64,000 nucleotides of DNA from SAR324 cluster bacterium (GCA_015232315.1 JADFZZ010000001.1:208835-272834), one strand, 5' to 3'; positions 5,035 to 18,957 are shown, counted from the stretch's first letter. A program made the numbers and translations. The notes: generated by a model from the letters alone, not told the origin.

Positions 5035-6249
5035 TCATATATTTCCAAGATATTCAAAAGCGATAACTGTCACATCGTCATCGTATGTTCCAAAAGTGAA
5101 TTCATCCAGTGTCCTGACCAGATTTTTCACAAGGGTTTGCAGTGGTAATTCACGGTTCTGCGCTAAAAATGCGCATAGACGTTCTTCACCGAACAGGTTA
5201 TCTTCGCCATCTTTGGCTTCATTCACACCGTCAGTATAAAGAAATCCCCTGTCACCTTTTTTCATGGTATAACGTTCTTCGGTATAAGAAATCCAGTCAT
5301 TTGGAAACAATCCGAGAAGCTTTCCCTTGAGGTTTAACAAAACGGGAGGCTGGCCATCCGCCGGGATAATGATCAGTGACGGATGTCCGGCATTGGCCGT
5401 TGATAATTCTCCTTTGCTGTTGATGCGGGCACAGATTGCGGAAATAAAACGGTCATCAGGCATTTCTTCTTCAAACGTCTGATTCACATGCTTGAAAACA
5501 TCTTCAATGTTGGGACTGTCAATGCTTTGATCCAGTAGCATTTTTGCCATAATCGTCGAAAGTGCCGCGGCTACACCATGACCTGTGCCATCTCCCACAA
5601 ACATATTATAATAACCGTTATGCCCTTCCTTCAGATAATAAATGTCACCTGAAACATGAGATTGAGGATTGTATTGAACGACAATATCCAGAAAAGTCGG
5701 CGGCTTGTAACTGGTAATCAGTTTTTTCTGAACATCCTCAGCCATTTGCAGATCTTCTTCCATCTCCAGTTTCTGGCCCTTGATGGTGCTGTAAGACGCA
5801 CTGAGCGCCTCTTCCGCCATATTGCGCGCCATGATTTCCAGTCGAAGATCCTGCATGCTGCGATGACGTTCCAGATAGCCCATGGTCCGGGCTTTCAGTT
5901 CCTGCATGATAAAAGGCTTGGTCACATAATCCGTCGCACCCAGTTCAAAGGCCTGAATCTTGGAATTGTTATCCGTGATGCCTGTCAAAAATAATACGGG
6001 AACGGACGTATTACCCAGAGTTGTGCGTAGTTCCCTGATGAACATGAGTCCATCCATCACAGGCATTTCCATATCTGTAATGATCAGGTCTATTTCTTCT
6101 TTTTTGGCTATTCGCAAGCCTTCCTGTCCATTGGACGCTTCGAGAAAAGTGAAGACACAGGGAAGCGGTTGAAAGGCCTGTTTGATCACCATTCTGACAA
6201 ATTGGCTGTCATCAATGATCAGCAGGCAATAGTGCGGCTGTTCGGGCAT
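5035..6249 (-). CDS. response regulator receiver fused to a PP2C/SpoIIE-type phosphatase (RsbU-like)
   Basis: REC motifs LLIIDDS...ITDMEMPVMDG and PP2C motif GDGTGHGVAAAL. The ORF track starts at TTG 6264; the first ATG is at 6249. Confidence 0.78.
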   Translation of the reverse strand: MPEQPHYCLLIIDDSQFVRMVIKQAFQPLPCVFTFLEASNGQEGLRIAKKEEIDLIITDMEMPVMDGLMFIRELRTTLGNTSVPVLFLTGITDNNSKIQAFELGATDYVTKPFIMQELKARTMGYLERHRSMQDLRLEIMARNMAEEALSASYSTIKGQKLEMEEDLQMAEDVQKKLITSYKPPTFLDIVVQYNPQSHVSGDIYYLKEGHNGYYNMFVGDGTGHGVAAALSTIMAKMLLDQSIDSPNIEDVFKHVNQTFEEEMPDDRFISAICARINSKGELSTANAGHPSLIIIPADGQPPVLLNLKGKLLGLFPNDWISYTEERYTMKKGDRGFLYTDGVNEAKDGEDNLFGEERLCAFLAQNRELPLQTLVKNLVRTLDEFTFGTYDDDVTVIAFEYLGNI

Positions 6250-6269
6250 AAATGAGGGATCCAATGGTG

Positions 6270-8312: not shown

Positions 8313-8342
8313 TTGCAGACGAATAAAAAATGGAGTGTGACT

Positions 8343-9284
8343 GTGAACAATGAATTCAATCTCGTCCTGGCGAGTCCTCGCGGTTTCTGTGCCGGTGTGG
8401 ATAGAGCCATCACCATTGTGGAAAAAGCGCTGGAACTTTATGGTCCGCCGATTTATGTGCGGCATGAAATTGTGCATAATCCACATGTCGTGAACAGGCT
8501 CAAAAAACGTGGTGTGATTTTTGTGGAAGAACTGGATACCGTCCCTGAAAACGCTCATCTGATTTTTTCAGCACATGGTGTTTCTCCCGCAGTACGGGAT
8601 GCCGCATCACAAAAAAATCTGGCTGTGCTCGACGCGACGTGTCCGCTTGTCACCAAAGTTCATCTGGAAGCACAGCGTTATGCCCGAGAAGGATATATCA
8701 TCATCATGATCGGGCACAAAGACCATGTGGAAGTGGTCGGAACCCTTGGTGAAGCTCCAGAAAAAATGGTCGTCATCGGGAAGGTTGAGGAGGTAGAAAC
8801 ACTGGAGATCCCCTCGGGGCAGAAAATCGCGTATCTCACTCAGACGACGCTGTCACTTGATGACACAGCCAGTATCATTCAGGCTCTCAAAGCAAAATAT
8901 CCTGATATCGAAGGTCCCAAAAAAGATGACATCTGTTATGCGACCCAGAATCGTCAGAACGCGGTAAAAAGTTTGGCACAAGCTGTTGATCTGATTCTGG
9001 TCGTCGGGGCGCCCAACAGTTCCAACACAGTGCGGTTGGTGGAAGTTGCTCAAGGCGCGGGAATTCCCGCCAGAAGAATTGAGTCGGCCGATGAACTGGA
9101 GAGGGCATGGTTCCGTTTCGGTATGCGGATCGGCATCACCGCTGGAGCTTCCGCACCGGAAGATATTGTTCAGGGAATAGTTTCCAGACTTGAAACCTTT
9201 GTGGACCATAGCTCCATTGAAGAATTGACGCTTGTGGAAGAAAACGTCACTTTTGCGCTTCCTGCCGCTTTAAAAAATGTCTGA
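8343..9284 (+). CDS. ispH: 4-hydroxy-3-methylbut-2-enyl diphosphate reductase IspH (LytB)
   Basis: LASPRGFCAGVDRAI plus further Cys-containing motifs. Likely GTG start at 8343 (GGAG 7 nt upstream); the ORF track begins at TTG 8313. Confidence 0.88.
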   Translation: MNNEFNLVLASPRGFCAGVDRAITIVEKALELYGPPIYVRHEIVHNPHVVNRLKKRGVIFVEELDTVPENAHLIFSAHGVSPAVRDAASQKNLAVLDATCPLVTKVHLEAQRYAREGYIIIMIGHKDHVEVVGTLGEAPEKMVVIGKVEEVETLEIPSGQKIAYLTQTTLSLDDTASIIQALKAKYPDIEGPKKDDICYATQNRQNAVKSLAQAVDLILVVGAPNSSNTVRLVEVAQGAGIPARRIESADELERAWFRFGMRIGITAGASAPEDIVQGIVSRLETFVDHSSIEELTLVEENVTFALPAALKNV

Positions 9285-9798
9285 ACCGTGTCGCCGCAAT
9301 GTGCCGCATGGAGACTCGATGTTTTTCTTCAGCGGTCATTTCGGCCATTGTTCGGGTTTCACCAGCAGGTTGAAAAATACAGTCCCAGCCAAATCCGTTA
9401 CTGCCTCTTGGTGGAACAATCGTTCCCTCCAGTGTTCCCTCAAGCACATGCATGGTTTCGCCATCCTCAGAATAACCGAGACAACATACGGCTCTTGCTG
9501 ATTTATCTGGAAAAGCGCTGAGGGCCTGAACCAGCCCCTGCATTCCCATATTTTTCTCAAACCATTTGATCAAAACCCCGGGCAGTTCATTCCATGCGTT
9601 AAAAAACAGGGAGGTGTCTTCCACCAGAACAGGTTGCTGAAGTGCGGAATAGGCTTTTTGTGTCTTGTCACGAACCAGTTCATGAAGATTCGTGGTCTGG
9701 ATTTCATGCAGATCCAACGCTACGTTTTCCAGAGGAATTCCCAGGAGTTCACGCATTTCACGGAGTTTGTTCAGATTGGATGTTACGAAATACAGCAT
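9247..9798 (-). CDS. rdgB: non-canonical purine NTP pyrophosphatase (RdgB/HAM1 family)
   Basis: MLYFVTSNLNKLREM...EDTSL...FGWD motifs; 3' end overlaps ispH by 38 nt (convergent). Confidence 0.82.
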   Translation of the reverse strand: MLYFVTSNLNKLREMRELLGIPLENVALDLHEIQTTNLHELVRDKTQKAYSALQQPVLVEDTSLFFNAWNELPGVLIKWFEKNMGMQGLVQALSAFPDKSARAVCCLGYSEDGETMHVLEGTLEGTIVPPRGSNGFGWDCIFQPAGETRTMAEMTAEEKHRVSMRHIAATRFRHFLKRQEAQK

Positions 9799-12666
9799 TT
9801 AATCCAGGGGTTTAATGAGTTTGAGTCCCGATGGCAATTTGTCTCCAAACAACCAGTCATTTGACGTAGCGGAGGAAAGGTTTTCGTCAGTCGGCACTTG
9901 CAGTATTTGTTGCAAGGCCTCTGTTCCTTCCTTTTTTTTGAGAAAATCAATAATTTTATTACGGGTTCTGTCACTGATATCACGAGAACGGTCTTCGGTA
10001 AGCTGTCCCATTTTTGAGAGGATCAGCGGTAAATCCTGATAGAAAGTGATCTCGGGGGACAAACTCAGCAACCAGTCGATCCAGGATTCTACCGTAGAAA
10101 CACTGACCGCGTTGACCGGACTTCCATAAACAGGCACTCTGCCGCCTATACGTGCCAGACACCAACCTTCAATTCCTGTTGCTTGCCCCAGTTTGACCTG
10201 ACTGATCAGTTCATGCCCCAATTTCAATTTTTCCTGCGGTGGCAGATGTTCAAGGCTGGCCAGCAGTCTCCATAGTTCATTGAGTGCCGTTGGTGACGCT
10301 GCGGCAGTGGTTTTTCCACCTTTTTTACCAGTTTTTCCGATCGTGCCTTTACGAGGTTTCATTGCGGATTCCCTGATTTTTTTCCACCCCATGTCCAGCA
10401 GAAGTTGCTGATTGGCTGTTGAAATTCCACCCGCGATTCGTCGACACATCACCCACCATTCAATTTCAATGGCGCGTTCTTTTCGAAAATGAGGGCCACC
10501 CGGAAACAATTCCATCACCTGTCGCATTTTGAGTTCATCGCCTCTGCAACCATATCCCGGTCGCAGACAAAAACCCGCAAGTTTCAGCCAGTTCAATTCA
10601 TGATTGACCGATCGTGTTCTTCGTCCCATGCCCTCATACAGAAATGGCCATAAGCCACGTAACAATGGGATCGACCACTCCTCACGGGGCATTTCCAGAG
10701 CTTGTTCCATTTGCCGGTAAATGCCGCCACTGACGGAGCCTTCAGCATTTCGTCCGAACCACTCCTGAAGGCAGGCTCTGGCAGGGAGCAAATCTTCTTC
10801 TGCTAATGTAATCAAGGATTCATCGTCCGTTTGTGCCGCAGTGTTTGCCGCACGCAGTTGAAACGCCAGTTTCCATTCCTGGTTCCGTTGCGCGTCTACA
10901 CAAAACAAACTCAGGGTTCCGATTTCGTTCAATATGGCTTTGAGATGAATTTCCAGTTCCAGTGTCTTCTTTTTAACGAGTTGACGATCAGGAGTGATCA
11001 AGGTCTGCAAGGGCGGCAATTCAATAAATTCCCGCTCTTTTTCTTCCGCGTTCAGCAACAGGATAGCTCCCGCCTGATCCTGAGGACGATGAATGGAGGA
11101 CATCAACTGAAATACCACAGGCTGATTCACTCTCAGCATGATGCCCGTTTGAAGAACAGTCACAGGTTGTTCGGGAACAATGTGCTGAGGCAAAATACAA
11201 AGCCACGCTTCTTTTTTGTCTGATTCTGATAATTCCAGATGGACATGGATATAATAAGACCGTGCGCTACCACCCTTGATCAGAATACCATGCCCCTGTT
11301 GCGCCATTTGATAATACGCGGCACCGCGAGCAACCGCCAAATGCAGATCGTGGTGTTCCAAAGGCTGAACAACCGCTGGTCTTCGTGATTCATGGCATTG
11401 TTCACGCCAGGTTTCCAACTGAGTCAATAAACGGGACCTTACCACAGCAGGTGACAAAGCCCCTCCATTGAACAAGACCTGATCGGGAAATTTCAGTTGT
11501 CCGTGATCTTCCAGTGAGCGCTTTAAAAACGCATGAAGATGTTTGGTGATCGCCGCATCCTGAGCATAGGGCAAGCCCATCTGTTTCAGACCGACATTAC
11601 GATTTTTGATCAGGGCGGCATCCCATGAAATGACAGGAAAAAATCCCTCAAGAACGATTTGTTCCAGCAACCCCCTGTTTAAAGCAACGGTTCGAGTATT
11701 TCCCATCAATCGACTGCCTGAACCACTGATGGTGACAGGAATCTGTTCATGACTGCCTGAGAAAACAGTTTCCTTGGCGAGTCGACACTGCTGAACCAGT
11801 GAGTCCCATAACCGTGGTGCCAGTTTTTGACTGTTTCCTGCCAGTTCGGATTCAAAGTGATGCGCGAGGGCCAGATCCATGTTGTCGCCTCCCAACAGCA
11901 GATGATCACTGACTGCGATGCGTTCAAAATCCGGAATCTTTCCGGCCTCAGTTGCAGTGGTATGAATCAGACTGAAATCAGAGGTTCCGCCGCCAATATC
12001 AATCACTAAGGTTACATGCGATTCATGAGACAGGGTTGAGGCCTCCTGATCCGCAATCCAGGAATAAAACGCGGCCTGGGGTTCTTCCAGCAAAGAATAA
12101 TTTTTGAGCCCGGATGATTCCACGGCACTGAGTGTGAGTTCACGGGCGATTTCATCAAATGAGGCAGGAATGGTGATGACAACCTGCTGAAGTTCCAATT
12201 TGAGAGCACTGTTTTGGGCCGCAAAATGATGGTCCCAGGCATTTCGGATGTGAGCCAGAATCATGGCGGTCGCCTCGACGGGAGACCAGAGATGGGATTC
12301 AGTATTACCTAAGGGCAGAAACGCAGAGAATGGATCAATTCCATGGTAACAAAGCCATGATTTTGCGGAACTGATGGTTAAATGCGGTGTACGGAATTGT
12401 TGTTGCCGGGCATAGTCCCCCACAATCAAGGGGGCCGAAGAGGACTCCCATGAGTGTTTGAAAATGCCGGAATTCAGTTCTTCAACGTTGGGAAGGTAAA
12501 GGCATGAGGGGAGCACCGGATTCTTATGAAGACGCCCCTTGTCCACCCATTGCGCAATATCAAACGGATGAATCGTGTGTGTCCAATCCTGCTGATCTAC
12601 ATAAAACACTGCGCAATTGCTGGTTCCAAGATCTATTCCAACCAGATATCGGGAATTATTTGCCAT
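9799..12666 (-). CDS. 955-aa Hsp70-superfamily protein: complete actin-fold nucleotide-binding domain plus a C-terminal extension of about 550 aa that does not resemble the DnaK substrate-binding domain
   Basis: Phosphate-1 VGIDLGTSNCAV, connect-1 LEEPQAAFYSW, phosphate-2 IDIGGGTSDFSLI, LLGGDNMD, adenosine FNGGALSPAV. No DnaK substrate-binding-domain signature downstream. Confidence 0.7.
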   Translation of the reverse strand: MANNSRYLVGIDLGTSNCAVFYVDQQDWTHTIHPFDIAQWVDKGRLHKNPVLPSCLYLPNVEELNSGIFKHSWESSSAPLIVGDYARQQQFRTPHLTISSAKSWLCYHGIDPFSAFLPLGNTESHLWSPVEATAMILAHIRNAWDHHFAAQNSALKLELQQVVITIPASFDEIARELTLSAVESSGLKNYSLLEEPQAAFYSWIADQEASTLSHESHVTLVIDIGGGTSDFSLIHTTATEAGKIPDFERIAVSDHLLLGGDNMDLALAHHFESELAGNSQKLAPRLWDSLVQQCRLAKETVFSGSHEQIPVTISGSGSRLMGNTRTVALNRGLLEQIVLEGFFPVISWDAALIKNRNVGLKQMGLPYAQDAAITKHLHAFLKRSLEDHGQLKFPDQVLFNGGALSPAVVRSRLLTQLETWREQCHESRRPAVVQPLEHHDLHLAVARGAAYYQMAQQGHGILIKGGSARSYYIHVHLELSESDKKEAWLCILPQHIVPEQPVTVLQTGIMLRVNQPVVFQLMSSIHRPQDQAGAILLLNAEEKEREFIELPPLQTLITPDRQLVKKKTLELEIHLKAILNEIGTLSLFCVDAQRNQEWKLAFQLRAANTAAQTDDESLITLAEEDLLPARACLQEWFGRNAEGSVSGGIYRQMEQALEMPREEWSIPLLRGLWPFLYEGMGRRTRSVNHELNWLKLAGFCLRPGYGCRGDELKMRQVMELFPGGPHFRKERAIEIEWWVMCRRIAGGISTANQQLLLDMGWKKIRESAMKPRKGTIGKTGKKGGKTTAAASPTALNELWRLLASLEHLPPQEKLKLGHELISQVKLGQATGIEGWCLARIGGRVPVYGSPVNAVSVSTVESWIDWLLSLSPEITFYQDLPLILSKMGQLTEDRSRDISDRTRNKIIDFLKKKEGTEALQQILQVPTDENLSSATSNDWLFGDKLPSGLKLIKPLD

Positions 12667-13411
12667 TCCTCACTTCTTCATATTCTTCGTCATCTTCATC
12701 TTCATCGTCATCGTCATACTCTTCATACTCTTCATATTCGTCTTCGTCTTCATAGTCATTCTCGTCGTCCTCATCAGGACCATTTGAGTTTGACTGATTT
12801 TCCAGCGTGAAGTGCAAAGCCATTTCAAAAGCCGCTCTTGTAAACTCAAGGACTTTGGCGAAGCCTTCATCCGACAGCTTTCGGGCCTCATCCCGACTGC
12901 GGAAAATATTAATAAATTCACGTTCGCGCTCAAAATGATGTGGAATACGCCCTACCCCCCAATCCTGCAAAATCCGCCAGGCTTCCGGATTGTAGGTGCG
13001 TACTGATCTCAGAATAAACGGGACCGGATCATGGCGTGCCAACAGTGCGGCCAGACGCAGGGTTAATTCAAACGAAAGCGTGGCTGTTCCATTTTCTACC
13101 GCATCCAGCAATGTCTGGTCAGAAAGATCAAGAGCATCATTCAGATCATTGATGGTCATTCCGGCCACCTGCCGCAAGTCACGCAACGAAGCGCCCATTT
13201 CCTGCAGGGCGAGAGATCTGTCAGCACCGGGGATCAATGCTTTACCGACTCTGATGGATTTTTCTCCTGTTTTTGCGACAGCCTTGAACGCCGCATTGGT
13301 CATTCCTGCCATCATTCGAATCAGCGAACGTTCCTCTTTAGGATACATTCGGATCACATCATCAGAAACTGCCTGAGGTAATTCAGCAGAAACGGGTTTA
13401 TTTCTGGCCAT
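12656..13411 (-). CDS. XRE-family helix-turn-helix protein with poly-acidic (D/E/Y-rich) C-terminal tail
   Basis: GMTINDLNDALDLSDQTLLDAVENGTATLSFELTLRLAALL fits the XRE HTH pattern. Last 45 aa are about 85% Asp/Glu/Tyr. Stop overlaps the downstream Hsp70-like start by 11 nt. Confidence 0.55.
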   Translation of the reverse strand: MARNKPVSAELPQAVSDDVIRMYPKEERSLIRMMAGMTNAAFKAVAKTGEKSIRVGKALIPGADRSLALQEMGASLRDLRQVAGMTINDLNDALDLSDQTLLDAVENGTATLSFELTLRLAALLARHDPVPFILRSVRTYNPEAWRILQDWGVGRIPHHFEREREFINIFRSRDEARKLSDEGFAKVLEFTRAAFEMALHFTLENQSNSNGPDEDDENDYEDEDEYEEYEEYDDDDEDEDDEEYEEVRNGK

Positions 13412-13457
13412 AACATCCTGTCCGTTAAGGTTTTAAAGTTAGCCGCTACCGGCGATT

Positions 13458-14759
13458 CTATGCCTCATAGAAATTCAGATCATTTTCAACTTCATGTAAG
13501 AGGTCCTTCACCATTTTATCACCAAATTCCAGTTGAATTTGCAACAATTTCTGGACCCGTTTCAGATTTTCCAGAATCCATGGTCGAGGTAACTGAATAT
13601 TCAGGAGATGAACAGAAGTTTGAATGAAATATCGCAGAACACTGGCATATTCGAGCAGAATAGTGAGTTCGTGCCCTTTCTTCTTCAGAGAGCGCTTGCT
13701 ACTGCCGGTACGTCTCAGGGCAAGGCCATAAAAGTGATAGGTTTTTTTAAACAATTCCTGAATATCTTTTCTGATTTCCTTCCCGATTGCACCCGCACGA
13801 AAGCGATTGACCATGTAGGTCATCTCACTCATATAAACTCTGGCCTTCAAAAAATAGCCCAAAGAATTATCCTTGTCATGAAGCACAAATTTATCAGTGA
13901 TGTCAACCGCATAAGTTTGTAGCAACAGATGAAATCTTAAAAAATGGATGATGGCATAGGCTTTGACATATAAATGTTGTTTGAGTTCAGGCTTTGACTG
14001 ATCGCTGTTGAGTTGCCGTTCAATGTCATTGATATCAAACATTTCGGTGAACATATATTTGGAAAGCTCAGTCGCTTTAGCCGCATGGGTCATGTATTCC
14101 TGAATCACACGGATGTTTCTGTTGATCACGGCTTTCAACCGTTCCAGTGTTTTGATTTGCTCTTCTGTTCCTGTGGCTTTTTTTGCCAGAAGAATTTTGT
14201 TTTCTATTGTTCGGACATCATGCCTGCATTTAGCCTGAAGTTGGTTCAAATAGGTATTCTGTGCCCATAAAGCCACCTGAATTCCGGGAATACTGAACAC
14301 ACCAAAGGTATTTGCCACAGTCGATTGCAGTAACATGGTTCGATACACTTCCACAGGAAGTTCACGCCCTGTCTGGCCCAATAACGTGACAAGAGCAATA
14401 CGCGCCTGATAATCCATAGGATCCGTTTTCAAACGTTCCACCAGGTCTGTGGCAGTTTTGGTTGGATGATGCTGTGCCAGATCTTCTCCAGTAACCCCTT
14501 CCCAGTATAGTTTGCCGAACTTGCCACCGAGCATGGCTTTTGCCCTCATGATGAAGGTTGCGTTTTTTGCTTTCAATATTTCATCATGCCTTTTTTTAAT
14601 ATCCCCTTCCCAGTGAGTCACCAGTCCCGGAATGTTACCAATATTCTTGGCAATAATCTTGAGATGCGTCAGTCCCTCTTTAGGGTCTGAGCTTTCCCAA
14701 TCCTTGCCGAAAATATCTTCATTGATAATTTGTCCTTCTTCCTTTTTCTTCTCAGCCAT
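13458..14759 (-). CDS. hypothetical protein (433 aa), first gene of the Hsp70-like operon
   Basis: Long ORF with ATG start, same strand, 46-bp gap to the next gene; no recognisable motif. Confidence 0.45.
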   Translation of the reverse strand: MAEKKKEEGQIINEDIFGKDWESSDPKEGLTHLKIIAKNIGNIPGLVTHWEGDIKKRHDEILKAKNATFIMRAKAMLGGKFGKLYWEGVTGEDLAQHHPTKTATDLVERLKTDPMDYQARIALVTLLGQTGRELPVEVYRTMLLQSTVANTFGVFSIPGIQVALWAQNTYLNQLQAKCRHDVRTIENKILLAKKATGTEEQIKTLERLKAVINRNIRVIQEYMTHAAKATELSKYMFTEMFDINDIERQLNSDQSKPELKQHLYVKAYAIIHFLRFHLLLQTYAVDITDKFVLHDKDNSLGYFLKARVYMSEMTYMVNRFRAGAIGKEIRKDIQELFKKTYHFYGLALRRTGSSKRSLKKKGHELTILLEYASVLRYFIQTSVHLLNIQLPRPWILENLKRVQKLLQIQLEFGDKMVKDLLHEVENDLNFYEA

Positions 14760-15002
14760 TCATCCATTATGGAAATTAGGGACAATTAAAGGGTTCCAGC
14801 CCCCCAATAAATTTTAGGCACACTAAAATAAATCAATAAAAACTTCAAACATTACTATACATGCCACGGTTTTATCAAAAAAATCGAGTGCAACTCCACG
14901 GCACAGACAAAAAAAATAAATAAACCATTTGACCTCTTTGAAATGAAATTGCTATGAAGAATTGAACCAATTATTCCATAATCATTCATTACAAGGAGCA
15001 AT

Positions 15003-15569
15003 ATGACACAAAAAATAAAAAAAATAATGACCGTCACCCTGATGTTTTTATTCATGGCTCAGACCGGAGCCTCCTTATATGCTCAAGAAACGCCCCCCGC
15101 ACAAAATGCGGAAACAGACGCCGCGGCGGTAAAAAAAATCAATCGCGATGATCTGATCAAATACAGAAATTATGTCATGACCATCAAAGGCAATCACACC
15201 CAGGCCTTGAGGTTGCTTGTCGCTAAAAAAATCAATATGAGAAATCAGTTTATTGCCCATGCGGAAGCCTTGAGTGCCTTGTCCTTTGAAATGTTGCGAC
15301 TGTTTCTTCCGGGAAGCATGGGACCAAAATCACGAGCCAAAGCGGAAATCTGGGACAAAGATGGACGGTTGAGCAAAAAATTCGTGGAACAAACTCAAAT
15401 CATGGAAAAAGAAGCACGCCAATTGGTGGATGTCTCACGCTATGGCGATCTGGATGCTATCAAAAAACAACTTCGTTCCTTTGAAAAAAATGGTTGCAAA
15501 GGCTGTCACTCTGAATTCCGTGGTGAAGGAACACCGGATCCGATCGCGTCGTATGAAGATGAGGAATAA
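15003..15569 (+). CDS. cytochrome c' (class II cytochrome c) family protein, secreted
   Basis: AAGGAG RBS, signal peptide, four-helix-bundle length, C-terminal haem motif CKGCH. Confidence 0.6.
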   Translation: MTQKIKKIMTVTLMFLFMAQTGASLYAQETPPAQNAETDAAAVKKINRDDLIKYRNYVMTIKGNHTQALRLLVAKKINMRNQFIAHAEALSALSFEMLRLFLPGSMGPKSRAKAEIWDKDGRLSKKFVEQTQIMEKEARQLVDVSRYGDLDAIKKQLRSFEKNGCKGCHSEFRGEGTPDPIASYEDEE

Positions 15570-15606
15570 TCCTTAAACCATTTAAAAATTTTTGAGGAGT
15601 AGGAAT

Positions 15607-16770
15607 ATGAATAAAGTATTAACCGGAGCAGGGATATTATTACTGCTTGTGCTGGGCTTTTATTTGATAAGTGGACTGTTTGAAAAACCAGATGAAGTGG
15701 TAACTCCAGTCACACAGACAGAACCGGAACAAGAGGAATTGACTCTTGAAGAGCCGACCATCACACCAGTCACTGTGGCGCCAAAAACAGAAACGCAACC
15801 CCAGGTTGTTGAGAAAACAGAAGAAGCTCAGGACAATCAGCAAATCCTAAAACAAGGTGATCAATTGATTCAGGCCAAACTTCAGGAGATTGCCACAGAT
15901 TATGCGCATAACCTGAAATTTCCGCCATATGCCACACCTTTGAATGAAAATAGTTATGAGTATTTGAATCCAAACGCGTTTATTCCTTTCAGACTTAAGA
16001 TGCCAACCGGTGAGCCATTCTCATACGAGATCATATTGCCATCATCTGTATTATTTAAAGGCATTCCTATTGAAGGGACTTTCCGCATCTATGGAGATCA
16101 ATCTGAACCGCTTCCCCAGGTTCTGGATGTCAAGGCTGAAATTCTCAACAGACAAAAGGTTTTGGCTTCAACACAAATGACGATGACTCAAAATGATGAG
16201 ATGGAAAAACACTTCAGCTTTACGATTGAATCCCCAATCGAGGAAAGCAAAGATTGGCCTGCGGAACTTCAGATCAAAGCGGTTTTTCTGCTGAGTGGTT
16301 ATGGAGAACAAAGTTATATCCTGCCCTTCCGTCTTGAAGAATCAGTGGCAAAAGTGGATGGTCTCGGACAAGAAACTGTTGATGGCCCTAACTTGCTCAT
16401 TCCTGTCAATATTACAGTAAATAATTCAGGGACATACCGTGTAAGCGCTAATTTGTATTCCCAAACGACTGGGAGTCCTCTTGTACATATACAGGGACAA
16501 CAAAAAATTGAAGGAACATCAGGCACAGTTATATTGAAAGCGCATGTTTCCGCACTGAAGGAACGACAGGATACAGGGCCTTATGTCGCAAAAACTTTTC
16601 TGGTTGCTCGTCATTCCGAGAGTGGTGGCGCCGATCAGTCAGGGAATGCCGGGAATGCCGAATTTGTCATTCCTGGACATGATTTTAATGAGTATAAAGA
16701 TGAACCTTATGTTGATATGGGGGAACAGGAGAAACTGAAAAGATTTAATCAAATTATTCAGAATTGGTAA
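15607..16770 (+). CDS. hypothetical N-terminally membrane-anchored periplasmic protein
   Basis: GAGGAG RBS before ATG 15607; single N-terminal TM (ILLLLVLGFYLISG); Pro/Thr/Glu-rich linker then a large globular region. Confidence 0.5.
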   Translation: MNKVLTGAGILLLLVLGFYLISGLFEKPDEVVTPVTQTEPEQEELTLEEPTITPVTVAPKTETQPQVVEKTEEAQDNQQILKQGDQLIQAKLQEIATDYAHNLKFPPYATPLNENSYEYLNPNAFIPFRLKMPTGEPFSYEIILPSSVLFKGIPIEGTFRIYGDQSEPLPQVLDVKAEILNRQKVLASTQMTMTQNDEMEKHFSFTIESPIEESKDWPAELQIKAVFLLSGYGEQSYILPFRLEESVAKVDGLGQETVDGPNLLIPVNITVNNSGTYRVSANLYSQTTGSPLVHIQGQQKIEGTSGTVILKAHVSALKERQDTGPYVAKTFLVARHSESGGADQSGNAGNAEFVIPGHDFNEYKDEPYVDMGEQEKLKRFNQIIQNW

Positions 16771-16782
16771 TTTTAAAAAATG

Positions 16783-16813
16783 GTTGGTTGTCTTGGAAAC
16801 GACAACCAACCTT
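16783..16813 (+). terminator. hairpin downstream of 15607..16770
   Basis: ggttggttgtc-ttggaaac-gacaaccaacc stem-loop followed by a T-rich tract. Confidence 0.4.
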
Positions 16814-17151
16814 CCTTCCTTATCCCACATGCCTGTTTTTCTACATAACATGATCAAGAAAAATGATTGTAATTTGAGGACAACTTACGACATTCCCCTC
16901 TTGGAATGATTTAAGATTATTAAAATAAAATATTTCATAAGATCATTAGCTAACAATATGATATTATTTAAAAATATAAAATCTACTCGACTGGCGTTTT
17001 CTGAAGAAATTTTTGTGGAATGGGAATTTAACGACCTCGACGTTGCACTAATTGGAGAATGTAATACGCTTTAATCAAAATATTATTTTACTTACAGATG
17101 GTTTTTGGGGATCATCTGAATTTAATAACAATCATTTGTGGGGAGGGCCCA

Positions 17152-18957
17152 ATGAAAAAAGTCATAAAAAAAATAATGATATCCTGTTTGGCATTAGGCG
17201 TAATGACCGCATGCCAACCAACCCAGGAAGAGAATCAATTGAATGTTAGCGCTGATAATCAGCAGGGACAGTCTCTCAGTTTTGATAAGTCAATCAGTGT
17301 AGCAGATTCCAGTGAGCGATTGTCTGTCAATCCAGACCTGATTTTTGTGGAAGGATTCAGCAATGGTTTTATGAATACCAACAGTTTTTATACATTAATG
17401 TCTCCCTTGAACAGTATGCTAGGACTCTTTGGAACCAGTGTTGAGGAAATTGTGAGTTCTGTTGCTGGAATCGATTTATCCAGTCAGCCAGGTTATGCGA
17501 AGTGGTATTTCTCAAAATATGCTGACGCATTCCTGGCCCAAGGAAAGGTCAATAAAGTGGGTTATCTCCATTGGGATACGGGTTATAGAATTTTAAGAGA
17601 TGGATTAATAAGCCAAATGGAGGATAACTATAATGGAGCTGGGGCGCCTGGATTACACACCCGGATTCAGCGCATGATGAATGGGACTTATACGGCAAAT
17701 GATGTGAAAAATTTTGATGCATATTGTCCTGGAGCAACTGAAACAGTTACAGAATTTGGCATATCAAATGTTAAAAAATGTAACAATGCCGCCTATAAAC
17801 TTTGTGCTAATGGTTGTATTTTCATGACACACTCCACAGGAGGTCTGGTTTTCGATCGGTTAGTTTATGAAGCTAATCAGGAGAAGCTATATCCGGGAAC
17901 CTACCCTAAACTGGCAGGTGTGTGGGATAAAACCACCATGGCCATTGAAATTTCTTCAGCCGGTGGAGGAACCGAGTTTTCGAACACAGTCATCAACCTA
18001 GTGGTTACTATGTGTAGTGGCGGCACCCAAACGGATCAATTGGTTAACTTTCTTGTAGGAGCCTTGTTCCCGGAATATTCTTGTGTGTCAGGAGGGTTAG
18101 AAACCAACAGCCAAAGGGCTGGTGCAGGTAGAGACTTGATGCCTGCGATTGCTCGTGATGCGACTAATGGAACAAAAGCCAGCTTTGGACGAACACCAAT
18201 TCTTCATATTGCGGGAAATGGAAACATGATGCCAGATGTGGGGATTTTGAGACTGGATTGGATTATTTCTAACAGTTATGGCGGTGCAGGCTATGGAGAT
18301 GGATTGGTTCCTTTAGCTTCTACCTGTGGTGCTAATACGGCAACACCTATCAAGAGTTGTCATCCTAAAGTGAGCCCTACTGGTACAATTGGAACCTATA
18401 GCGCTCCTGCTGGATTGTATACAAACCATCATCCCTTTATCATGACTGGAGAAGGCCATTTGAGCGAAATGAACGCAATTTTCGAAGCTTTGGGTGTGGA
18501 TGATAGTAACTGGGGAACTTATGTGAATCCAATCAACTATGTAGAAGTAGCTTTGAAATCCGGTAATTTGGAGCAAAAAATGGAACAGAGTTTCAGCAAT
18601 AGTGTAGTAGAAGTTCTGGTTCCGCCTCAAGGCTGGGGAAATCCAGAGGTAATGAGAACACAATGTTGGTATGAAACCGGATACGCTGGTGCGGATACAG
18701 CACTGCATACAAATTTGGATACATCCAGTAATTATGGCGGCATGTCCAATCAGGTTGATGACATCACCTGGAGAGGAACCAATACTCGCTATGATTTTTG
18801 GGATTGTGGTGGAAATAAAACGGATTGGTATTATTCCATTACCCAAATGAGCCTTGAAGGGGATGGCGACAGAATGTTCCACCTGTTGAGTAAAAAACTG
18901 GACGCTCGCATGCAACGGGGTGATACGGGACAACAAAACAATATGCAGGTTCAATAA
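17152..18957 (+). CDS. secreted lipoprotein, lipase/esterase-like alpha/beta hydrolase candidate (paralogue A)
   Basis: GGGAGGG RBS; lipobox LALGVMTAC; nucleophile-elbow-like FMTHSTGGLV; acid motif DGLVPLAS; Cys-rich C-terminal half; about 75% identical to 19414..21231. Confidence 0.55.
   Translation: MKKVIKKIMISCLALGVMTACQPTQEENQLNVSADNQQGQSLSFDKSISVADSSERLSVNPDLIFVEGFSNGFMNTNSFYTLMSPLNSMLGLFGTSVEEIVSSVAGIDLSSQPGYAKWYFSKYADAFLAQGKVNKVGYLHWDTGYRILRDGLISQMEDNYNGAGAPGLHTRIQRMMNGTYTANDVKNFDAYCPGATETVTEFGISNVKKCNNAAYKLCANGCIFMTHSTGGLVFDRLVYEANQEKLYPGTYPKLAGVWDKTTMAIEISSAGGGTEFSNTVINLVVTMCSGGTQTDQLVNFLVGALFPEYSCVSGGLETNSQRAGAGRDLMPAIARDATNGTKASFGRTPILHIAGNGNMMPDVGILRLDWIISNSYGGAGYGDGLVPLASTCGANTATPIKSCHPKVSPTGTIGTYSAPAGLYTNHHPFIMTGEGHLSEMNAIFEALGVDDSNWGTYVNPINYVEVALKSGNLEQKMEQSFSNSVVEVLVPPQGWGNPEVMRTQCWYETGYAGADTALHTNLDTSSNYGGMSNQVDDITWRGTNTRYDFWDCGGNKTDWYYSITQMSLEGDGDRMFHLLSKKLDARMQRGDTGQQNNMQVQ

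Follow-up and report, generated by a model that had tools for sequence, protein, structure and literature searches.

Three co-directional genes in a 64,000-nucleotide stretch of DNA from a SAR324 cluster bacterium (GCA_015232315.1 JADFZZ010000001.1:208835-272834; hereafter the window) raise the question of whether an unusual Hsp70-like protein and a DNA-binding protein form a dedicated module, or whether a widespread protein family stands here beside genes that belong elsewhere. All three lie on the minus strand, and the open reading frame (ORF) listing gives exactly the coordinates proposed in the initial annotation: a gene for a 433-amino-acid (aa) protein at 13458..14759, a gene for a 251-aa helix-turn-helix (HTH) protein of the XRE family at 12656..13411, and a gene for a 955-aa protein with an Hsp70-type nucleotide-binding domain (NBD) at 9799..12666, stop codon included. 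From the sequence, that annotation read the three as an operon encoding an ATPase and DNA-binding regulator module. Our joint best explanation, which we hold with somewhat better than even confidence, is that the 955-aa protein typifies the Hsp70-DUF3731 family, that its gene stands alone in the SAR324-like clade, that the cluster is specific to this lineage, and that the XRE protein controls the Hsp70 gene.

Domain architecture of the 955-aa protein

Among the bacterial Hsp70-DUF3731 proteins, which form a very large family that is catalogued and uncharacterized, the 955-aa protein is unremarkable. Pfam returned a partial HSP70 match (E 9.7e-18) and, C-terminal to the Hsp70 NBD, a match to PF12531 (DUF3731, 'DNA-K related protein') at residues 686-950, which spans profile positions 1-248 of 248 and scores 206.1 bits against a cut-off of 25 (E 1.1e-60). 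Because the solenoid that forms the end of the protein is this known Pfam family, the architecture had already been catalogued, and the NCBI name of the family is 'Hsp70 family protein' (PF12531 with PF00012). Homology searching retrieved at least 8000 homologues; HSP70 and DUF3731 occur together in all 120 of those listed, most of which are 896-992 aa long and two about 1,500 aa, and the window protein shares the three-part architecture and the length (900-990 aa) of the PF12531/PF00012 family. Its whole-length identity to thousands of PF12531/PF00012 members is 34-50%, and the best homologue among the matches listed is only 50% identical.

The NBD occupies residues 1-465 (11272..12666, minus strand), and the family profile matched the E. 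coli DnaK NBD with an E value of 1e-22. The phosphate-1 motif GIDLGTxN, the catalytic lysine, the connect-1 motif EEPxAA, the phosphate-2 motif DxGGGTxD, the LGGxxxD motif and the adenosine GG are all present, and over 87 family members the residues D12, K102, E194/E195/P196 and D223-G-G-G-T228-x-D230, together with G259-G-D-N (G259-D264) and N400-G401, are invariant or nearly so. The complete Hsp70/actin-fold motif set described in the initial annotation is thus borne out across the family. When the family profile was aligned to DnaK, the counterparts of DnaK D8, K70, E171, D194, T199 and D201 were conserved as well. Retention of these residues suggests that the ATPase site is intact, and the protein is, as judged from its conserved catalytic residues, an ATPase-competent Hsp70.

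The C-terminal half was modeled with AlphaFold2 for residues 465-955 on the basis of 87 sequences, giving a mean predicted local distance difference test (pLDDT) score of 88.3 and a predicted template modeling (TM) score of 0.83 for a β-sandwich followed by an α-solenoid. The sandwich, at residues 466-605 (10852..11271, minus strand), consists of eight modeled strands with pLDDT mostly 85-97, and Foldseek matched it (residues ~470-604) to the substrate-binding domains (SBDs) of DnaK, HSP70, BiP and mortalin with probabilities of 0.96-1.0, E values of ~5e-3 and TM scores of 0.3-0.4. The short segment between the NBD and the sandwich, GILIKGGSARSYYIHV, parallels DnaK's VLLLDVTPLSLGIET by eye. 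The model suggests that the β-basket of Hsp70, the SBDβ, is probably retained. The α-helical lid (SBDα) is absent from the model, and its position is occupied by a solenoid of about 330 residues resembling ARM/HEAT repeats, at residues 623-955 (9802..10800, minus strand), which holds DUF3731 and which Foldseek also matched to armadillo proteins. The earlier reading, in which nothing in the last ~550 residues resembled the substrate-binding domain of DnaK, therefore stands for the lid, where the solenoid is found instead, and probably not for the β-sandwich. The related statement that a canonical substrate-binding domain is lacking agrees with our results: no combination of SBD and lid was found, and the NCBIfam equivalogs gave 80.8 bits for HscA (cut-off 708) and 55 bits for DnaK (cut-off 648), with scores for the DnaK/HscA/HscC-type models of 55-81 bits overall against cut-offs of 620-820. 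Like DnaK, HscA and HscC, the protein has a full catalytic NBD, a linker-like segment and a predicted sandwich resembling SBDβ; unlike them, it has no helical lid, carries the 330-residue solenoid, and has no dnaJ or grpE gene adjacent to its own.

The solenoid is basic, with a net charge of +6 and a pI of 9.0 (family median charge +6), and ten of its arginines (R670, R683, R702, R713, R743, R839, R843, R893, R895 and R902) are invariant or nearly so. Conserved LRPGxG and EWWxxxRRxAGG motifs also occur within it. The unusual number of conserved arginines and these motifs together suggest a candidate conserved site for an anionic ligand on the DUF3731 solenoid. The protein is probably a clamp or co-chaperone of the Hsp70 type, driven by ATP, and its solenoid may offer a docking surface to a partner or an anionic ligand.

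Genomic context of the Hsp70-DUF3731 genes

In most phyla the Hsp70-DUF3731 gene belongs to a triad, as exemplified by Planctomycetes bacterium Pan216, in which the order is DUF2760, a 607-aa Hsp70, and Hsp70-DUF3731. Over its residues 1-605 the window protein is 39% identical to the 607-aa paralogue, which, as it covers only these residues, appears to consist of an NBD plus basket and to be lid-less. By scanning species-representative genomes and then applying tblastn, we identified 18 loci in which this 600-aa paralogue lies directly upstream of Hsp70-DUF3731, 17 of them with DUF2760 upstream too, in Gamma- and Betaproteobacteria, Acidobacteriota, Desulfobacteraceae, Planctomycetota and Verrucomicrobiota. 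The pair of DUF2760 and the 600-aa gene without a detectable Hsp70-DUF3731 occurred at a Parachlamydiaceae locus and at a second Verrucomicrobiota (Spartobacteria) locus. In two proteins, P0010 (1536 aa) and P0011 (1499 aa, from a Polyangiaceae metagenome-assembled genome, MAG), the 600-aa paralogue forms the N-terminal half and Hsp70-DUF3731 the C-terminal half of a single chain, which constitutes Rosetta-stone evidence that the two Hsp70s act as a pair. The triad also follows a MarR gene on the conjugative plasmid pCC829_3 of Bradyrhizobium barranii (contig L121, 2953-8802), where a VapC toxin gene adjoins it, and it occurs on chromids, which are secondary replicons, of Burkholderia and Caballeronia (H1-H9). 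Its presence on a conjugative plasmid and on secondary replicons indicates a horizontally mobile module. No paper on DUF3731, DUF2760, PF12531 or 'DNA-K related protein' was found in the literature searched.

In contrast to the triad of most phyla, the gene is solo in the SAR324-like clade. Most PF12531 members follow DUF2760 and the 600-aa Hsp70, whereas the window gene follows an XRE gene, and tblastn of DUF2760 and of the 600-aa paralogue against the window matched only the 955-aa gene itself. Its nearest relatives, at loci L001, L002, L013 and L015 (44-50% identity), likewise have a solo Hsp70-DUF3731 gene, and the surroundings of the solo copies are housekeeping genes (EF-Ts, RRF, prc and clpA). 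At L002 (5599-14478) and L015 (1666-10408) the solo gene is divergent from prc, which encodes the tail-specific envelope protease, and the genes after it are one for a hexapeptide-repeat protein, then clpS and clpA. A tblastn search of the window with prc, clpS, clpA, ubiB and other genes neighboring the homologues found none of them.

These arrangements bear on what the protein might do. In eukaryotes, Hsp110 and Grp170 are large Hsp70 derivatives that act as nucleotide-exchange factors, and HspBP1 and Fes1 are exchange factors of the armadillo type. By analogy, the 955-aa protein could be a nucleotide-exchange factor or a disaggregation booster for DnaK or for the 600-aa paralogue, and not itself a substrate holder, with its ARM-like solenoid in a role akin to that of HspBP1 and Fes1. 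Derivatives of bacterial DnaK in which the lid is shortened or absent and further domains have been added are described as unexplored 'dark matter' and have been proposed as Hsp110-like co-chaperones (PMC13580251), and the window protein fits the analogy drawn there in being an enlarged Hsp70 derivative of a kind found together with a smaller one. The conserved pairing and natural fusion with a second Hsp70, and the position of the solo copies at L002 and L015 between the proteostasis genes prc and clpS-clpA, are consistent with such a role. However, an extended helical lid is retained in Hsp110, whose SBDβ also carries insertions, whereas the solenoid that takes the lid position here is unrelated; the similarity to HspBP1 is non-specific, as it ranks only 23rd among generic ARM/HEAT structural matches to the solenoid; and genes for a J-protein, GrpE and DnaK are all absent nearby. 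The full conservation of the catalytic residues also speaks against an exchange factor, since the exchange activity of Hsp110 needs no hydrolysis. We regard an Hsp110-like co-chaperone as a fairly unlikely alternative to the clamp favored above.

The XRE protein and its junction with the Hsp70 gene

The 251-aa protein had been labeled as XRE-HTH. Its own match to HTH_31 (PF13560) at residues 71-126 falls just below the gathering score (26.7 bits against 27), so that the label is borderline for this protein taken singly, while most of its homologues carry precomputed PF13560 or PF01381 assignments that support it. Over a core of ~150 residues it shares 55-70% identity with more than 1000 homologues, whose sources include Marinobacter, Pseudomonadales, Syntrophus and Desulfobacteraceae, a degree of conservation that is unusually high for an XRE regulator. 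Comparison with 15 of them (from Marinobacter, Syntrophus, Desulfobacteraceae and others) gave core identities of 50-65% and 52 invariant columns, including the invariant motif AVENGTATLSFEL...ERERxF. A sequence search of the Protein Data Bank (PDB) with the XRE protein returned nothing significant.

The protein ends in a low-complexity, poly-acidic tail at residues 206-251 (12659..12796, minus strand). The 46 residues have a net charge of -26, and across residues 209-247 (39 residues) Asp, Glu and Tyr make up 85%, in agreement with the tail described from the sequence at the outset; the GAW-rich tract noted as encoding it lies at about 12659..12796. We considered whether an acidic tail is a trait of the XRE family and rejected this, as the tail charge ranged from -27 to +10 with a median of -3 in 107 members, among which the tail of the window protein is the most acidic.

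The usual company of this family is a protease gene. A metagenome scan yielded 80 XRE-family loci (L040-L119, most of them with the XRE gene near 10001-10600). At 59 of these the gene immediately upstream, in the same orientation, is prc, an order that also occurs in Marinobacter (L010, 5809-8714). The family thus looks like a conserved downstream partner of prc, with 55-70% core identity across phyla. Where prc is absent, the XRE gene precedes ubiB or sits among genes for storage lipids and polyhydroxyalkanoates (L064, 4230-11112; L090, 783-3209; L092, 2435-7768; L012, 153-2591), and Pfam confirmed minority neighborhoods with WS/DGAT plus phasin, with patatin, and with PHB depolymerase, MaoC and PhaR. 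Unlike this usual context, no prc was found in the window. On the simplest reading, the XRE protein would be a transcription factor for protein-quality-control genes. HspR is a regulator of the MerR type and ClgR an XRE-family regulator of clp genes, and the XRE family described here resembles the HspR-DnaK and ClgR systems in that a small HTH regulator gene is linked to a chaperone or protease gene. The similarity of the XRE protein to ClgR is nevertheless negligible (PDB 3f51, E 0.59), and the conserved 80-residue C-terminal domain and variable tail of the family are without a known counterpart in HspR or ClgR.

In the window, the end of the XRE gene and the start of the Hsp70-DUF3731 gene overlap by 11 nucleotides (ATGGCAAATAA, 12656..12666, minus strand), as had been stated in the initial annotation. 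A GAGG sequence lies about 1 nucleotide ahead of the Hsp70-DUF3731 ATG, and since this is too near, coupled reinitiation seems more plausible than independent initiation driven by a Shine-Dalgarno sequence. In this lineage the XRE protein may thus control an Hsp70-DUF3731 gene to which its own gene would be translationally coupled. The junction recurs once, in a related organism, as contig L120 repeats the order XRE then Hsp70. The closest XRE homologue, P0127, is encoded there; it is 70% identical, and its tail is acidic as well, with a charge of -14 that places it joint second among the 107, tied with P0243. Five nucleotides after it a further gene starts with MTPKNSRYLIGIDLGTSNSAVFYVDQ (longer stretch MTPKNSRYLIGIDLGTSNSAVFYVDQEDVTRQLH), which over 30 residues is 77% identical to the N-terminus of the window Hsp70; 34 residues of this L120 protein are known. 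The genes upstream of XRE differ between L120 and the window. A two-gene, lineage-specific pairing of XRE and Hsp70 is therefore possible. Counting the prc/XRE, XRE/Hsp70 and prc/Hsp70 adjacencies, three pairwise combinations occur in all, an observation made post hoc in few lineages.

The junction could reflect more than regulation of one gene by its neighbor. An XRE protein of the prc-associated type may have been recruited in a SAR324 sub-lineage as the specific partner of a solo Hsp70-DUF3731 protein, its acidic tail docking on the Arg-rich solenoid or the β-basket, so that ATP-dependent binding of the Hsp70 would gate DNA binding. Such a mechanism would resemble the action of DnaK on HspR or on sigma-32. 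The 11-nucleotide overlap, the persistence of the junction in L120 despite different upstream genes, the rank of the two tails (-27 and -14), the charge, pI and invariant arginines of the solenoid, and the absence of DUF2760 and the 600-aa Hsp70 from the window all point in this direction. However, there are two occurrences only, and they are phylogenetically related, so that common descent accounts for the tail as well as for the adjacency; a basic solenoid is found throughout the family, triad genomes without an XRE partner included; just 34 residues support the L120 comparison; and the XRE gene is absent from sister lineages at 44-50% identity. We consider such a dedicated switch unlikely. 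The fuller conjecture, in which a solo Hsp70-ARM protein has taken over an XRE normally tied to prc and the 45-residue acidic tail of this XRE docks on the Arg-rich solenoid as a chaperone-gated transcription switch that replaces the DUF2760/Hsp70 pair, appears to us less probable still; if true, it would offer a first clue to the ligand of the DUF3731 solenoid.

The cluster and its surroundings

No conservation of the three genes as a module was observed. The XRE gene and the 433-aa gene were found at none of the ~30 Hsp70-DUF3731 loci examined; homologues of Hsp70-DUF3731, DUF2760 and the 433-aa protein were found at 0 of the 80 metagenome loci of the XRE family; and at the five loci with 433-aa homologues (L004-L008) the homologue is followed by unrelated convergent genes, with neither XRE nor Hsp70 next to it in any. 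The lack of synteny at these five places the 433-aa gene outside any conserved module. The three genes occur together at no other locus examined, an outcome that the initial annotation had named as refuting its proposal. A dedicated three-gene module is thus not supported, and the cluster as a whole is mostly a lineage-specific juxtaposition in which gene order is largely incidental.

The 433-aa protein itself matched no family in Pfam, NCBIfam or PADLOC, and a sequence search against the PDB gave nothing significant. A profile search recovered 134 representative clusters of similar length, Pfam found no shared domain in 60 members of the family, and the structural model is entirely α-helical (pLDDT 92.6), with helical repeats resembling TPRs. 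In a sibling MAG, the 613-aa protein P0122 combines a part that is 97% identical to residues 1-300 of the 433-aa protein (window 13860-14759) with a 37%-identical paralogue of the 392-aa ORF at 15592..16770 in the window (aligned 15868-16767); P0122 may be a genuine fusion or a product of chimeric assembly.

A further suggestion was that the genes form a signaling or defense cassette, in which the ATPase and the HTH protein would act as a sensor-effector module on an anti-phage defense or conflict island. The NBD does weakly match the PADLOC candidate PDC-M61B (25 bits, E 1.7e-6) and a generic HTH_VI model is matched at 18 bits, and a related triad lies beside the VapC gene on the conjugative plasmid mentioned above. 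The PDC-M61B match, however, spans just ~90 residues of the common actin-fold core, and effector domains (nuclease, protease, TIR, Sir2 or other) are absent. The window genes are instead surrounded by housekeeping neighbors (rdgB, ispH, a GlpD-like dehydrogenase and cytochrome c'), as are the solo copies in relatives, and the GC content of the cluster region (0.46-0.49) is ordinary for the window (~0.45). A defense role is thus highly improbable, and the suggestion of a signaling or defense cassette is not upheld.

Several observations weigh against our overall interpretation. The tight coupling of XRE and Hsp70 argues against pure coincidence, as do the repeat of the junction in L120 and the fact that the two Hsp70-linked XRE proteins have the most and the joint second most acidic tails of 107. 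Our survey left out the genomic contexts of P0002, P0004 and P0007-P0009, which are close relatives of the Hsp70, and of P0243. The solo state was judged from 64 kb, and DUF2760 and Hsp70 partners could sit elsewhere in the genome. Identification of the sandwich as SBDβ comes from structure (Foldseek E ~5e-3, TM ~0.3-0.4), as hhalign of the family profile against an approximate SBD sequence of E. coli DnaK showed no sequence similarity (probability 0.2). Finally, all functional statements about the Hsp70-DUF3731 family are inferred.

The co-directional cluster is larger by one gene than originally proposed. The three co-directional genes are as described, and rdgB, which encodes the Ham1 non-canonical purine NTP pyrophosphatase (9247..9798, minus strand; Pfam Ham1p_like E 3.6e-47; TIGR00042 145.9 bits against a cut-off of 145.35), is a fourth member of the cluster, its start codon beginning at the base right after the Hsp70-DUF3731 stop codon. 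The tight co-directional order is thus the 433-aa gene, XRE, Hsp70-DUF3731 and rdgB, with a divergent cytochrome c' gene upstream and a convergent ispH gene (8313..9284, plus strand) downstream, whose 3' end overlaps that of rdgB by 38 nucleotides (9247-9284). Between the 433-aa gene and the divergent cytochrome c' gene lies an AT-rich intergenic region (14760..15002). As no other sizeable non-coding gap precedes the four genes, it is the likely promoter region of the cluster. A scan of 8800..15300 for promoter and terminator consensus sequences gave counts not above those of shuffled controls, and no boundary of a transcription unit was set. No J-domain protein or second Hsp70 was found in the window, and no J-protein, GrpE or DnaK near the Hsp70-DUF3731 gene, so that the initial annotation was correct in reporting no DnaJ or GrpE and in calling the arrangement non-standard for a chaperone; the DnaK/DnaJ/GrpE layout does not apply here.

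Downstream of the cluster there is a 409-aa response-regulator-like ORF with a TTG start (window 5035-6264), whose output domain, read by eye, may be of the PP2C/SpoIIE type. On the upstream side of the cluster lie two further large ORFs (window 15592-18957), one of 392 aa (15592..16770), which had no match in Pfam, and one of 619 aa.

Although the locus itself is ordinary, the Hsp70-DUF3731 family as a whole deserves experimental attention. Thousands of bacteria in at least six phyla carry an Hsp70 that is, by its conserved residues, ATPase-competent and that would bear an armadillo-like solenoid at the position of the lid. The domain map, the triad, the fusions, the basic and Arg-rich solenoid, and a lineage with a coupled, acidic-tailed regulator could all serve to orient such experiments. 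The pairing of prc with XRE is, in addition, a testable lead on the regulation of envelope proteolysis.

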